A stretch of 63,371 nucleotides of DNA, counting the filler, from Collodictyon triciliatum (taxonomy: Eukaryota): NCBI GenBank assembly GCA_043381765.1. It is 21 parts of 21 records of this genome, joined end to end, with 100 filler letters (N's around TTAATTAATTAA, not from the genome) between each part and the next. Parts side by side here need not be neighbours in the genome. Positions count along the whole stretch, not along the records: positions 24,715 to 27,699 come from JBHJMP010007967.1; positions 27,800 to 30,784 come from JBHJMP010007968.1; positions 30,885 to 33,869 come from JBHJMP010007969.1; 18 more parts are not named here. The stretch is one strand, 5' to 3'. The position numbers and the translations under genes were made by a program. The notes beneath the pieces are model-generated. The model was not told the DNA's origin. It worked only from the letters and a program-made list of their open reading frames with translations, and did not search any database. Shown one piece after another: positions 26,721-30,898 of this stretch (position 1 is its first letter; every line of letters starts with the position of its first letter).

Positions 26721-27999
26721 GGTCAGACAATCACTAGTATGGAGAATGCACTGGAGGCCTTTCAACCATCCCCCCCAACCCCCATCCTATACTCTTCACC
26801 CACGCAAGTCCCATTGCCACCTTATACACCCAAGAAACGTCTTCGCCAGGCGTGGTCTTTGACCAACCCCTCCAGTGCCATTATAAATGAACCCCACTGC
26901 CACCCTCCTCTTTGATGACCTATCGCGTATCAATCGGTGGAGTAACCAGCTCCGTGTGGACAACCCGCTCACAGGCTATTCCCGAGTCTTCTTAGAGCAA
27001 TCGCTTGTTTCTGCGGCACGAGTCGAGCATATGTTGCCTGCCCACACAGGCTTCCGATGGCCAGTGCATCCCTTCAACTGCGCTCAAAAAGAACACAGTC
27101 TACCCTCCCATTTGCAGATAGTGGATTTCTTGGGTTCTGTCAGATGGACGAGGCACTGAGAAAGATAGCAACATCATGGAATGCGTAATCAAACTGTTGC
27201 TGGCCTGTGCTATTCCTCACACCCACCCAAGGTACCACAGAGCCCATGAAAACTTCACCCTTAGCACCCAGCAACCATGTGTTTGATTGTGAGTTTTGCA
27301 TAGATTCGTGGGCTCTAGCATGGCGAAGACATATTAGTTCGTGCTATATAATAGTGTAAAGAATTATGTATTTCTATAAATAAATAAACAATTCAATAAA
27401 AAATCAATTAATATAGTATTTTCCAGATATGTAAAAATTATGTGAATTGTCGTCATCATGCGTCATATCTTTTCCTCAATACAGAATCTATATTTAGAGC
27501 GCTACGAGTCGCACAAGTGACGAAGTGTGTCGTAATAGGGGACGGAAAAGGAAGTATCCGGTTCATATTTTGCTCTAATCGGGTTCTCGGTGAGAATTTT
27601 TGTCATTCCCTCAGCAAAATTTGCATCGATTTTCCATAATGGGCTTGCCATTTTTGGGTTGAATTCTGAATTTGGGAAGAAAATAATTTAGATGCATAAN
27701 NNNNNNNNNNNNNNNNNNNNNNNNNNNNNNNNNNNNNNNNNNNTTAATTAATTAANNNNNNNNNNNNNNNNNNNNNNNNNNNNNNNNNNNNNNNNNNNNT
27801 TGGCCGGTTTTCCCTTCCCCCCATTCCCTAATACAATATTTATATGTTCCGTTCTCATTCCTATATTTCTATCTCCACTTTTCCAGATTCGGAAACCGTT
27901 AGGGGTAAATACATTTTTATTTAATTTGTGAAATTAATTTAAAGAAATAATTAAAAATATAAAAGGGTTTAAAGTTTTATTTTTACTATAAATTATAAT

Positions 28000-29307
28000 A
28001 TGTGTGAAAATATCGATAAATCAATTTATGATAATATTGGATGGTTAACAAAAGTACAACAATTTAAAGGTGAAAATATATTTTATGAAAGACAGCCATT
28101 AATGATAAGATCATTATTAAATGATAAAAATAAACTTCAATATATCACAGAGTCGAAAGAATGGATTGATGATAAAAAATTAAAAAATGATATAAAATAC
28201 GGTAGAAATAAACAATATGTCATTGTTGAATGTTTTAAATGTGGTTGGAATTTAGACTCAGATATACATAAAAATAATAATGAATGTATCCGCGAATATT
28301 GTAATTATGCTACACAGATTAAAAAAATTACTAATGGTGTAATAAATTTTTACATCACCGGAACAACAACATTAGCGGCTTTAAAATTATTTTATGCTTT
28401 ACTTGGTGAAGATAAATATAAAAAATTTCAAGAAGTAGATGATGAAGAATATAAATGGTTAGAGGCTGCATCAATGGGAGGACTTATGTATTGTGAAAAA
28501 GGATATGAAGGCCCAGGATATGAATATGATGTTAATTCACATTATCCAAGTATTATGCAAAATATGCTACCAATACCATTTAAAAAAGGAAGTTATCAAA
28601 CAATTTCAGAATTTCCAAAAATTATAGAATGTGGTATATATAGATGTAAAATAACAGGAAATATTAATAAATATTTGTTTAGGTTAAATAATAAAAATTA
28701 TTATGTACATACTGATATATGCACAGCTAGAACATTAGGATATAATATTGAATTAATAAATGATGGAAATTATAACGCTTTAATATACAATAAAGAAGAT
28801 ACATTTACAGGTTGTTCAATATTTTATAAATATGTAAAATATTTATACGATTTAAAAGAACATTATGATAAAAAAAATTATTATTCTTTAAATTTAATAT
28901 TCAAATTAATTTTAAATTGTTTATGGGGAAAGCTTAGCGAGTCTAATATAATACAATATAAAATTAAAATAGGCGAAGATTTAAAATTAAGAAAAGGAGA
29001 AGATATAATAAGCGTAGACTTTGACGGGAAATATAGCATATTTACTATTTCAAAAGCTGGGCGATATTATGCTGGAGATCTGCCAAGAATAAAACCTTTT
29101 TTAACATCATATGGTAGATATTTTATAAGAAGTAAATTAAAACCTTTTGTCGATGACTGCGTAAGAATACATACCGATGGTTTTATATTAAAAAATAAAC
29201 ATGATGAATTATTAGATATGAAAAATTGTCAAAAGTATAAAGGAATGAAATATAAAGATTTAGGACAAATAAAAATTATTCATGTGAATGAAATTGAAAT
29301 GATTTAA
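28000..29307 (+). CDS. Protein-primed-type family B DNA polymerase (pPolB), Polinton-like virus
   Basis: Intronless AT-rich 435-aa ORF with SMGG, motif A YDVNSHYP, motif B FKLILNCLWGK, TSYGR and motif C IHTDG. Confidence 0.9.
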   Translation: MCENIDKSIYDNIGWLTKVQQFKGENIFYERQPLMIRSLLNDKNKLQYITESKEWIDDKKLKNDIKYGRNKQYVIVECFKCGWNLDSDIHKNNNECIREYCNYATQIKKITNGVINFYITGTTTLAALKLFYALLGEDKYKKFQEVDDEEYKWLEAASMGGLMYCEKGYEGPGYEYDVNSHYPSIMQNMLPIPFKKGSYQTISEFPKIIECGIYRCKITGNINKYLFRLNNKNYYVHTDICTARTLGYNIELINDGNYNALIYNKEDTFTGCSIFYKYVKYLYDLKEHYDKKNYYSLNLIFKLILNCLWGKLSESNIIQYKIKIGEDLKLRKGEDIISVDFDGKYSIFTISKAGRYYAGDLPRIKPFLTSYGRYFIRSKLKPFVDDCVRIHTDGFILKNKHDELLDMKNCQKYKGMKYKDLGQIKIIHVNEIEMI

Positions 29308-29338
29308 AATTTTATTTTTATATTATAATATTATTATA

Positions 29339-29575
29339 ATGAATAATATTATAGAAAATGATATACAATGTGAAAATAATAAACAATTAAAACAAGCAAG
29401 ATTTAAACAATTTTGTGAAAGAAATCCGGATTATTTTAAAAAATATTATGAAAATAATTTAAAAGATAGTTATTTTTATTGTTATTGTTGTAAAAAAGAA
29501 TATCTTACAACCCATAAATCAAGACATACCAAAACTAAAAAACATATGAAAAATGAAATAACATATAATAATTAA
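29339..29575 (+). CDS. Small C2H2-type zinc-finger protein (viral)
   Basis: CYCCKKEYLTTHKSRHTKTKKH; this HxxTxKH Zn finger is common in PLVs and NCLDVs. Preceded by TATTATA-ATG. Confidence 0.75.
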   Translation: MNNIIENDIQCENNKQLKQARFKQFCERNPDYFKKYYENNLKDSYFYCYCCKKEYLTTHKSRHTKTKKHMKNEITYNN

Positions 29576-29859
29576 ACCTGTACTGTTAATGGTTCATCAT
29601 TGCTATCATCTACAATTGTTATTGTTTTTTTACATTCTTTTTTTTCTCTTGGTTTTCTAGGCTTTTTTATTTTTAATACTTCTTTCGCTTCATCATTTGA
29701 TATAGCCATTGATACATCTTTATCTTCATTTAATGTTTTTTCTTGTAGTTTTTCAAATAGTTCTTTTTTATCTATTTCTAGTTCTTCTAATGCTTTCTGT
29801 GCATTCTTTATAATCTCTGATAAAAGTTTTTGTACTTTCTCAATTTCTTTTAAATTCAT
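29572..29859 (-). CDS. Hypothetical coiled-coil viral protein
   Basis: Intact 95-aa E/K-rich ORF, tightly packed. Its stop overlaps the Zn-finger stop at TTAA. Confidence 0.65.
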   Translation of the reverse strand: MNLKEIEKVQKLLSEIIKNAQKALEELEIDKKELFEKLQEKTLNEDKDVSMAISNDEAKEVLKIKKPRKPREKKECKKTITIVDDSNDEPLTVQV

Positions 29860-29947
29860 AATAATATATAATTAATCTATATATTATTTATTTATTATTT
29901 TACCGCGTAATAAAAATAATATTTATATATAAAACAATTATATTATA

Positions 29948-30583
29948 ATGTCTGATATTTTAATACAAGGCGTAAAATTGGTATGGATTACATTAGATGC
30001 AGAAAAAATAATATTAAAATGTGCCCGCGTATCATCAGATCATCCGGATTCTATGGATACAAATTTAATAAAATATTGCGCAAAAAATGGTCATTGGTCA
30101 ATATTCGAAATGGCGAATATGTGTGTTGAAATAACCGCGCCTTTATTTGTAATCAATCAAATCATAAGACATAAATCATTTAGTTTTCAACAATTCAGCA
30201 TGAGATACCAAGATAAAAATAAACTGTGTAATAATATATATGTTCCAGAATTTAGAAAGAAAGGAAAAACAAATAGACAATCATCCGAAGATGTTCACCC
30301 AGATAATGCAGAATTTATAAATGAATTTATTGATATATATTCTCACGCATCAGAACTATATGATAATATGATTCTTGCCGGAGTTGCTTATGAATGTGCC
30401 CGCGAAGTTTTACCAGTTTGCACACTATCAAAAATATATATGAATGGTAATATAAGGTCATGGATTCATTATTTGCAAACACGAACAAATAAACATACAC
30501 AAAAAGAACATAGCTATATCGCTTATCAAATTCTAGAAATATTTCAATGTAGACTACCAATAATATATAACGCAATATTTTAA
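29948..30583 (+). CDS. thyX: Flavin-dependent thymidylate synthase
   Basis: CARVS, GHWSIFE, ThyX motif RHKSFSFQQFSMRY, ECAREVLP, NGNIRSWIHYLQTR and HTQKEH. Confidence 0.95.
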   Translation: MSDILIQGVKLVWITLDAEKIILKCARVSSDHPDSMDTNLIKYCAKNGHWSIFEMANMCVEITAPLFVINQIIRHKSFSFQQFSMRYQDKNKLCNNIYVPEFRKKGKTNRQSSEDVHPDNAEFINEFIDIYSHASELYDNMILAGVAYECAREVLPVCTLSKIYMNGNIRSWIHYLQTRTNKHTQKEHSYIAYQILEIFQCRLPIIYNAIF

Positions 30584-30783
30584 ATAATTTTTAATTCTGT
30601 ATTAAAATTTTTATAAAACTTTGCAGGATTTCGCAATAAATCAACAAATAAAAAATTATAAGGTTCTTGTGTGGCATAATCTAAGTATTTTAAAAAATTA
30701 TCATTATCTGTCATTTCTGTCATTGTCTCTCTTTCTTTTTTATTATTTGTAAAGAATGATATTAAATGTGTAGCATTTCCACG
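30580..30783 (-). CDS. A32/FtsK-like packaging ATPase, C-terminal fragment (truncated by contig end; not in ORF track)
   Basis: Minus-strand translation RGNATHLISFFTNNKKERETMTEMTDNDNFLKYLDYATQEPYNFLFVDLLRNPAKFYKNFNTELKII* matches the RxN...AT.EPY.FL.(I/V)D...F.KNF tail of PLV/virophage packaging ATPases. Walker motifs lie beyond the contig. Confidence 0.7.
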   Translation of the reverse strand, partial: RGNATHLISFFTNNKKERETMTEMTDNDNFLKYLDYATQEPYNFLFVDLLRNPAKFYKNFNTELKII

Positions 30784-30898
30784 ANNNNNNNNNNNNNNNN
30801 NNNNNNNNNNNNNNNNNNNNNNNNNNNNTTAATTAATTAANNNNNNNNNNNNNNNNNNNNNNNNNNNNNNNNNNNNNNNNNNNNGTGCTTGGACCTAC

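Follow-up and report, generated by a model that had tools for sequence, protein, structure and literature searches.

The 63,371-nucleotide stretch analysed here, referred to below as the window, belongs to the assembly of the eukaryote Collodictyon triciliatum (GCA_043381765.1). One of its pieces, at positions 27800-30784, carries a complete gene for the thymidylate synthase ThyX between genes for a protein-primed DNA polymerase (pPolB) and a packaging ATPase. This contig probably represents the left ~3 kb of a linear, small double-stranded DNA (dsDNA) virus of freshwater, a mavirus-related member of the Preplasmiviricota that is present in the assembly as a stray unplaced piece, derived from co-sampled or associated material, and is not integrated. 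The window consists of about twenty pieces of ~3 kb, sorted by length and separated by N44-TTAATTAATTAA-N44 spacers (for example, 27700-27799 and 30785-30884). GC content varies from 0.24 to 0.52 among the pieces, and long open reading frames (ORFs) are absent from most of them. As a whole the window reads as the unplaced-contig bin of a eukaryotic assembly. As the pieces are merely concatenated, neighbouring pieces are uninformative about each other. The ThyX contig is exactly one such piece, with a length of 2985 bp and a GC content of 0.239 (23.9%, that is, 76% A+T), and it is flanked by unrelated pieces of GC 0.515 and 0.444. The initial annotation had listed pPolB, a zinc finger, a hypothetical ORF, an intact ThyX and the tail of an A32-like ATPase on this contig, and all five are present according to ORF calls, Pfam searches and comparison with relatives (Table 1).

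The contig belongs to a lineage that is found in environmental samples. One scan of JGI metagenome contigs yielded three syntenic relatives, L001 (3379 nt), L002 (2295 nt) and L003 (6332 nt). The order pPolB, zinc finger (ZnF), small ORF, ThyX and ATPase is kept in L001 and L003, and L002 stops 17 codons into ThyX. At the protein level, identity in these syntenic relatives is 77-87%, with lower values in the two small ORFs. In L003, an extra GIY-YIG endonuclease gene precedes ThyX, and the full ATPase gene is followed by ORFs of 347 and 137 amino acids (aa); this 6.3-kb contig, which ends just past the 137-aa ORF, is the longest of the lineage that was examined for genes. Moreover, a protein search gave pPolB relatives of 98, 79, 77 and 66% identity, all of them 435-440 aa long. 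Near-identical DNA occurs, at least in part, in 20 public runs from 14 studies, and in 10 runs, from 7 studies, a quarter or more of the contig's words are found. Of the 20 runs, 18 have an organism label, and each label is that of a metagenome (freshwater, lake, wastewater, aquaculture, sediment or unspecified). Four runs aligned to the contig cover it at 90-99% identity. The contig is not chimeric, because one 3436-nt contig from an independent metagenome run spans 27800-30780 in a single unbroken piece, with 74 substitutions and 5 gaps. Furthermore, a contig of run X3 extends 413 nt to the left of 27800, others continue ~1.4 kb beyond the right edge, and runs X1, X2 and X10 go on past 30783 with nearly the same letters, only the first one to three being different. 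Near-identical DNA from independent metagenomes extends past both edges, so the contig is an incomplete part of a virus-like genome that is free and widespread. Searches of other collections were less productive. IMG/VR gave no match with the single pPolB of the contig, and alignment A1 of pPolB retrieved from it only a phage-like contig, L010. The species-genome collection held no match with pPolB or the 347-aa family, and the 347-aa protein of L003 has no Pfam or PHROG family and no usable Atlas match.

The left end of the genome can be approached through the relatives. L001 and L003 begin with the same C-rich word (CCCCCC..GAC), about 600-700 nt upstream of pPolB, and the relatives extend ~400-520 nt further upstream of the contig's left edge to this shared start, which looks like the true terminus of a linear genome. 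Extension of the contig into a giant-virus, bacterial or organellar-plasmid genome, which the initial annotation had named as an outcome against its reading, was not seen: the contigs of the relatives do not exceed 16.2 kb, and two of them share the terminus. The left terminal region also holds 21-31-nt direct repeats and AT-rich spacers between G/C-rich inverted arms (GGCGG.../...CCGCC or GGGAGGG.../...CCCTTCCC), located at 308-391 and 454-537 of L003, 342-428 of L001 and ~1-60 of L002. The first ~30 nt of the contig (27800-27830) are the C-rich right arm of such a G/C-clamped hairpin; both clamp arms are visible in L002, and comparable clamps are present in L003 and L001. The clamped elements and direct repeats are possible replication-origin or terminal-protein-binding elements, and the position of the contig start inside a hairpin arm may be the reason why the assembly broke there.

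The 211-aa ThyX product covers the profile of the Pfam family Thy1/ThyX (PF02511) from position 2 to 190 of 191 (E 2.3e-43, 148.6 bits; cut-off 24.8), and it also matches the thymidylate synthase family PHROG 85 (E 4.3e-65). The gene is kept in every relative that reaches this far, with 87% identity in L001 and 81% in L003. The ratio of nonsynonymous to synonymous substitution rates (dN/dS) against these two is 0.09-0.14 for ThyX, compared with 0.17-0.31 for pPolB, and ThyX thus appears to be under strong purifying selection and functional. The best matches in the PDB are 2cfa, taken here to be the apo-enzyme of PBCV-1, and 4fzb, both with E 1.9e-37 over residues 17-209, followed by chain 1kq4_A (TM0449), presumably of Thermotoga maritima, with E ~7e-18. 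According to the available text of PMC3498832, 4fzb is a crystal of PBCV-1 ThyX with an inhibitor, with four homotetramers per asymmetric unit, consistent with the 16 chains of the entry, and the PBCV-1 enzyme is active and can substitute for thyA in Escherichia coli.

In a tree of 201 ThyX sequences, the ThyX of the contig belongs to a 9-member lineage clade (support 0.996), which is nested in a 16-member clade (0.967) and further in a 29-member clade (0.998). The latter includes none of 80 IMG/VR sequences, and the cyanobacterial sequence is also outside it. Among members of the 29-member clade whose rows were inspected, the longest contig has 15,028 nt, and the contigs with other ThyX homologues are as long as 180 kb. 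Additionally, metagenomic relatives score 189-472 bits against this ThyX, compared with 132 bits for the PBCV-1 enzyme. The initial annotation had named a common occurrence of thyX in described Polinton-like viruses (PLVs) as an outcome against its reading, and the present survey did not show one: ThyX was found in none of five mavirus-like IMG/VR loci, and the rarity of ThyX in mavirus-like viruses rests on these five. In the available text of published work pairing ThyX or thymidylate synthase with PLVs or virophages, no such gene is assigned to either; in one of these papers the thymidylate synthase belongs to a giant virus, and another deals with the ThyX of phycodnavirus CpV-BQ1 (PMC12085832). 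The main text of Wei et al. (PMC13215967) contains no mention of thymidylate, ThyX or PF02511, and the supplementary tables of this and of the PLV survey may include PF02511 as a rare domain.

The polymerase links the contig to mavirus. The 435-aa ORF matches Pfam DNA_pol_B_2 (PF03175) with E 1.1e-18 (67.9 bits; cut-off 25.8), residues 106-338 being aligned to profile positions 157-413 of 468. Since the match begins only at profile position 157, the exonuclease part is missing. About 100 residues precede the polymerase part, and the invariant columns of 7 close relatives contain no conserved DxE / NxxxD / YxxxD exonuclease set. These N-terminal ~100 residues carry a CxxC...H...C set that is invariant and is perhaps a metal site. 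The polymerase motifs YDVNSHYPS, K..NCLWG and HTDG are retained, and residues invariant across 51 relatives include D177, Y182, G310 and T392. An AlphaFold2 (AF2) model built from 51 sequences has a pLDDT of 87.7 and a pTM of 0.86. In BFVD, its fold is matched best (E 5.7e-25, TMq 0.71) by a protein of 617 aa, the pPolB of Cafeteriavirus-dependent mavirus, and the best phage polymerase, at E 7.5e-14, is weaker by ten orders of magnitude; a Tectiviridae sp. polymerase stands at rank 9 (E 2.3e-11). Among solved structures, the best fold is phi29 DNA polymerase (DNAP), with Z 20.5-22.0 and 338-352 residues aligned, the next family reaching Z of at most 11.6. The top phi29 alignment (Z 22.0, rmsd 4.1 Å, 338 residues) spans model residues 29-435 and compares the fold, TPR insertions included, as a whole. 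At the level of sequence, the PDB gave no match to this pPolB, even with a profile of close relatives. As a side observation, rank 2 in BFVD (E 7.7e-24, 30% identity) is A0A3G5A8K3. This 339-aa protein, named 'DNA-directed DNA polymerase' and carrying the label Harvfovirus sp., comes from a giant-virus metagenome bin, into which a fragment of virophage-like DNA may have been sorted.

The short form of this pPolB is better understood against its more distant homologues. Apart from the four close relatives, the homologues share 25-38% identity with it, and most have a length of 585-713 aa. The long relatives have an N-terminal extension of ~300 aa with NDC and HY motifs, which are read here as the putative catalytic Cys and His of vOTU, so that the extension would represent a terminal protein (TP) domain plus vOTU. 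In the available text of Krupovic et al. 2024 (PMC11071308), eukaryotic pPolBs are described as having an N-terminal TP domain followed by a vOTU cysteine protease, mavirus pPolB as having a TP-vOTU-palm, exonuclease-poor architecture, and these N-terminal extensions as having no counterpart in the pPolBs of prokaryotic viruses. In the 435-aa pPolB nothing corresponds to the NDC and HY motifs, and a profile built from the N-terminal ~300 aa of 37 long relatives reached only E 3.5 on it. The TP/vOTU profile also gave no match (E 0.15 or worse) in the other ORFs of the contig or in L001-L003. In other short-pPolB clades, the TP profile does match a separate ORF: one of ~122 aa just upstream of a 426-428-aa pPolB (L004 1437-1799 and L005 5933-6298; E 1e-10) and one of 140 aa (L006 142-561 and L009 981-1400; E 4e-3). 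In those clades, which have a separate TP gene of 120-140 aa directly upstream of pPolB, the vOTU part is absent. A FastTree phylogeny of the polymerase part, rooted on the phage-like L010, places the pPolB of the contig in a clade of 8 sequences (support 0.995) that nests among the ~600-aa long forms (0.905), and short forms appear in at least four places. This suggests that the TP-vOTU extension may have been split off or lost several times. The priming protein of the present lineage would then lie elsewhere in the genome or be too diverged for recognition, and its identification with the 347-aa protein of L003 is a guess. According to the available text of PMC11071308, loss of the exonuclease accompanies gain of a helicase in maviruses and PLVs; no helicase was seen in the 6.3 kb of the lineage. 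Two relatives show a further form of splitting. In L007 (3834-4376) and L008 (3450-3992), with 38% GC, the pPolB N-terminal region consists of three consecutive same-frame ORFs with a single stop between each, and the remainder of L007 is also broken up under the standard code. This may reflect a reassigned host stop codon or a decayed copy.

The third gene of interest is the ATPase at the right edge. Its tail of 67 codons alone matches no Pfam family. The 253-aa ATPase of L003 resembles this tail at its C-terminus (38% identity over 66 aa, pairwise E 7e-10), matches Pox_A32 (PF04665) with E 7.5e-15 and has a GSGKS Walker A motif. The tail of L001 is 100% identical to that of the contig over 57 aa. 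In an alignment of 28 family members, the tail shows the conserved Arg and the C-terminal FYKNF box, and Pox_A32 is matched by 27 of the 28, the exception being the tail itself. The family is large, with 3024 cluster representatives matching at E <= 0.001. Judged from this homology, the frame at the contig end appears to be an A32-type packaging ATPase, as the initial annotation had assumed.

The gene content of more distant relatives places these findings in a viral context. L005, whose pPolB is 34% identical, carries an rve integrase, a DUF5906 helicase, a separate TP ORF and pPolB. A scan of IMG/VR with an alignment of long pPolBs gave the five loci mentioned above, on contigs of 13.8-24.7 kb, of which three (L091, L092 and L095) were annotated. 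In each of the three, pPolB adjoins genes for a DUF5906 helicase and an rve-chromodomain integrase. Additionally, VLTF3 and a Sputnik-type major capsid protein (MCP; Sputnik_MCP_1st and MCP_V20_C, E 2.4e-28 and 1.8e-33) are encoded in L091, a double-jelly-roll-like domain occurs in L095, and Pox_A32 is found in L092 and L095. The module of rve and DUF5906 is typical of mavirus-related pMVRE group 1, according to the available text of Wei et al. 2026 (PMC13215967). The evidence that the lineage would be a eukaryotic virus is indirect but consistent. The initial annotation had proposed a small eukaryotic DNA virus of the Polinton/PLV kind. This proposal gains indirect support from the mavirus-type pPolB and from the integrase, helicase, A32 ATPase and capsid genes of the relatives, and it can be sharpened to a mavirus-related virus.

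A working model of such a virus can be outlined. Replication would be protein-primed from the genome termini by a minimal pPolB that would keep palm, fingers and TPR and would have lost the proofreading exonuclease together with the N-terminal TP and vOTU protease domains of its ~600-aa relatives. Because this pPolB is without a TP domain, the priming protein would have to be encoded elsewhere in the genome. ThyX would convert dUMP to dTMP, one small gene thereby raising the dTTP supply for a genome of 76% A+T. The enzyme uses methylene-tetrahydrofolate, NADPH and FAD and regenerates tetrahydrofolate, so that dihydrofolate reductase is not needed; ThyX is self-sufficient because no tetrahydrofolate is consumed to dihydrofolate. 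The A32-type ATPase would package the DNA into a capsid encoded in the part of the genome beyond this contig. For PBCV-1, a host of 66% G+C and a viral genome of 40% G+C are described as a major challenge for DNA replication in the available text of PMC10142491.

Table 1. Features of the ThyX contig (positions along the window)
Feature	Position	Strand	Basis
Left non-coding region	27800..27999	+	Alignment with L001-L003; upstream of pPolB
Protein-primed PolB, 435 aa, mavirus type	28000..29307	+	Pfam PF03175, fold match
78-aa Cys/His protein (CxxC...H...H), possible zinc finger	29339..29575	+	tblastn conservation
95-aa Lys/Glu-rich ORF, no assigned family	29572..29859	-	Conserved in L001-L003
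Divergent intergenic region, 95-aa ORF to thyX	29860..29947	.	Upstream-sequence comparison
ThyX, 211 aa, intact	29948..30583	+	Pfam PF02511, PHROG 85
Putative A32/FtsK-HerA-type packaging ATPase, 3' end, 67 codons (30583-30783) + stop	30580..30784	-	Homology to L003 ATPase; open at contig end

The remaining features of the contig are small. By tblastn, the 78-aa Cys/His protein is 71-82% identical in L001-L003, where it holds the same position, and the 95-aa ORF is 78-84% identical in L001 and L002 and 39% in L003; the former matches no Pfam family, and the latter none above the cut-off. In both convergent pairs (ZnF and the 95-aa ORF at 29572-29575; ThyX and ATPase at 30580-30583), the TAA stops of opposite strands overlap within TTAA, a sign of tight gene packing. 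The spacer at 29860-29947 contains a sole G/C-rich word, which is ACCGCG in the contig and CCGCGG in L001. A conserved GGTTTAAAGTTTTA-like box lies at 27965-27985, 33 nt before the ATG of pPolB, and is kept in all four sequences; such boxes stand 31-37 nt upstream of the pPolB and ZnF starts in all genomes (L001 ~559-580; L003 ~684-705 and 2036-2057), and in L003 they also precede GIY-YIG and ThyX. In each of three genomes compared, pPolB and ZnF are preceded at a distance of 29-37 nt by the 8-mer RTTTAAAR, and in L003 this word also precedes GIY-YIG and ThyX. Its counts of 8-19 per contig compare with 4-10 in shuffled sequences, an enrichment of ~2-3-fold that was considered too loose for the word to be accepted as a promoter.

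Three other pieces of the window deserve mention in their own right. The unplaced contig at 58629-61607 is, like the ThyX contig, AT-rich (GC 0.273), gene-dense and virus-like. On its minus strand a 309-aa ORF runs off the edge, and the plus strand has a 124-aa ORF. A long ORF at 60026-61606 likewise runs off the edge and is interrupted in frame by a single TAA (60872-60874). Between the 124-aa ORF and the last ORF of L003 there is weak similarity (26% over 101 aa, pairwise E 1e-4), and L003 ends right where the next gene would begin. A language-model look-up with the first half of the long ORF gave as nearest clusters the first domain of the Sputnik MCP and the nucleocytoplasmic large DNA virus (NCLDV) Capsid_N, with a score of 0.97. 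The four ORFs of this piece have no Pfam family, no IMG/VR relative and no phage match, and the capsid-sized ORFs of L091 and L092 show no BLASTP similarity to it. A profile of the 347-aa family does not match its 309-aa ORF, and a single-sequence AF2 model of the long ORF, with X at the in-frame TAA, is of low confidence (pLDDT 31.8). The piece may be the capsid region of a related virus, which is offered as a lead only. The pieces at 46307-49286 and 49387-52365 are almost fully coding, with GC 0.43-0.47; their ORFs are a single one of 993 codons, which runs off both ends, and a pair of 412 and 403 codons. Unlike the ORF-poor pieces that surround them, they may be other non-host or repeat-element sequences.

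Several points weigh against the identification of the contig as the left end of a mavirus-related virus. Within the first 6.3 kb of the lineage no capsid, penton, protease or integrase gene was seen, and the TP profile detected no terminal protein there. Terminal inverted repeats could be considered at the left end alone, where direct repeats and G/C-clamped hairpins were seen. The genome size is probably 13-16 kb because contigs with the lineage's pPolB, ThyX or 347-aa protein reach 12,855-16,172 nt and never more, an estimate drawn from lengths of contigs with no closed genome among them. The canonical ThyX signature is RHR-x7-S. The motif of the contig is RHK-x7-S-x-R, with Lys for the canonical second Arg; this variant is invariant within the lineage and occurs in 21 of 121 homologues, one of them source-named as cyanobacterial (P0150). 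ThyX proteins of ~210 aa are commonest in phages and cyanobacteria. The 80 best-match ThyX loci of IMG/VR include none with this pPolB, the A32 ATPase or the 347-aa family, and these loci are taken to be phage-like, their gene content being unannotated. A bacterial or phage source of thyX, or even a bacterial host, would not be strictly incompatible with such data.

Some of these points lead directly to an unlikely account in which the contig is a contaminant from a phage, either tectivirus-like or another protein-primed small virus of a low-GC freshwater bacterium, and ThyX is an ordinary auxiliary gene. Tectiviruses likewise combine a small linear genome (~15 kb) with a pPolB at the terminus and a packaging ATPase of the FtsK/HerA type, which counts in favour of this account. 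So do the PHROG families that match ThyX, the polymerase and the ATPase, and the ~210-aa ThyX that is abundant on IMG/VR contigs (at least 600 matches) and present in cyanobacterium P0150. However, the pPolB fold is closer to mavirus than to any phage polymerase, and 50,697 phage records gave only 9 weak pPolB matches (22-27% identity), none of them a tectivirus. This pPolB is also without the exonuclease domain, which argues against a tectivirus in particular. The relatives adjoin chromodomain integrases, VLTF3 and a Sputnik-type MCP; a Shine-Dalgarno-like word precedes none of 16 genes; and neither this ATPase nor this polymerase occurs in the 80 best ThyX-bearing IMG/VR loci. Moreover, the N-terminal extensions of the relatives are those stated to be without counterpart in prokaryotic-virus pPolBs (PMC11071308, available text). 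It is quite unlikely that the contig is instead an endogenous Polinton/Maverick-like element of the sequenced eukaryote, collapsed into a repeat contig, although it sits in a eukaryotic assembly, integrases are found in the relatives L005, L091, L092 and L095, and mavirus-related pPolB elements are endogenous in 97 of 7041 eukaryotic genomes (PMC13215967, available text). The initial annotation had allowed for an endogenous element, and this part of it does not hold up well. The contig has no host flank and lies among many other unplaced ~3-kb pieces, whose GC varies widely, and DNA 97-98% identical to it occurs in environmental metagenomes (freshwater, lake, wastewater) of many studies and in no single-organism-labelled run. 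Furthermore, every ORF is intact and the genes appear to be under purifying selection, L001 and L003 end at a shared terminus and not in host DNA, and the other proteins of the lineage have no match in any other piece of the window.

A capsid-less replicon, either linear and plasmid-like or a transpoviron-like satellite packaged by another virus, is quite improbable as well. Such a replicon would agree with the fact that no capsid gene was seen in the 6.3 kb of the lineage, and mavirus-related elements without structural genes have been reported (Wei et al., PMC13215967, available text). Yet an A32-type packaging ATPase, which is a virion-morphogenesis gene, is conserved beside ThyX, the 6.3 kb are only part of a genome of ~13-16 kb, and the second AT-rich contig has a capsid-like ORF after a small ORF that weakly resembles the last ORF of L003. 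Finally, a fragment of a giant virus (Nucleocytoviricota) is highly improbable. Such genomes commonly encode ThyX and an A32 ATPase, both of which occur in algal giant viruses, for example CpV-BQ1 (PMC12085832, available text); the genome is AT-rich, and the second-best polymerase fold match is labelled Harvfovirus sp. Giant viruses use a different, non-protein-primed PolB, which counts against this origin, as do the lineage contigs, which never exceed ~16 kb despite repeated assembly, and the terminus adjoining pPolB that two of them share. PBCV-1 ThyX is also more distant than the metagenomic relatives.

The mavirus-related freshwater virus preferred here has several implications. Virophages and PLVs are thought to be minimal and to borrow almost everything. 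If the identification is true, a conserved ThyX in a ~15-kb genome would mean that dTTP supply limits even such viruses, which fits a composition of 76% A+T. Viral metabolic genes would then reach the smallest eukaryotic dsDNA viruses, where ribonucleotide reductase (RNR) is the only such gene reported so far in the available literature. The pPolB would take the reduction of the mavirus type, namely loss of the exonuclease, further through the additional loss of TP and vOTU, and the repeated splitting of pPolB would offer a natural series for studying the minimal needs of a protein-primed polymerase. For users of the assembly, the piece 27800-30784, and probably others too, would be environmental virus DNA and not host sequence. 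A bolder proposal, possible but rather doubtful, is that the contig stands for an undescribed, widespread freshwater family with genomes of ~13-16 kb, which would combine ThyX with the most reduced pPolB known and a new Cys/His metal site. The 29-member ThyX clade would then be virus-specific and spread across an entire group of these viruses, and the 347-aa protein, with its conserved C-terminal domain and its place beside the ATPase, would be the detached priming protein.

Comparison with well-characterized systems helps to define what is particular to this lineage. With phi29 DNAP, the pPolB of the contig shares the overall fold as well as motif A (YDVNSHYPS) and motif B (K..NCLWG). It differs in having ~90 residues in place of the ~190-residue exonuclease domain, in apparently lacking the ExoI/II/III acidic triad on inspection by eye, and in its motif C, which is HTDG and not DTDS. 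Among PLVs, most use other replicases, namely pPolB-S1H, AEP-S3H and PolA-S3H (PMC11071308, available text). Those with RNR resemble the present case as small protist viruses with an enzyme of dNTP supply. In a marine time series, RNR was found in 51 genomes among 2,355 PLVs; these viruses have RNR instead of ThyX, and the main text of the preprint, as available, contains neither thymidylate nor ThyX (10.64898/2026.05.28.728513). The closest overall likeness is to mavirus and pMVRE group 1, which share with the lineage an A32/FtsK-HerA ATPase, a small AT-rich genome, the occurrence of GIY-YIG endonuclease genes (here in L003) and, in the more distant relatives of this pPolB, the module of rve and DUF5906 (PMC13215967, available text). 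In contrast to the 617-aa mavirus protein, the present pPolB has 435 aa without TP and vOTU, and it is only 25-38% identical to the mavirus-type ~600-aa clade. In the first 6.3 kb of the lineage no integrase or helicase was seen, and the lineage has a ThyX, unlike all five mavirus-like loci of IMG/VR. For ThyX itself, the nearest solved counterpart is that of PBCV-1 (A674R; 2cfa, 4fzb), which has the same short form of ~215 aa. PBCV-1 is a giant virus of ~330 kb, compared with a carrier of ~15 kb here. Like the enzyme proposed here, PBCV-1 ThyX belongs to a eukaryotic virus, and the viral genome is more AT-rich than that of its host (PMC10142491, available text). The two enzymes differ in their motif, RHR in PBCV-1 and RHK in the contig, and the ThyX of the contig is nearer to metagenomic proteins encoded on contigs of at most 15 kb.

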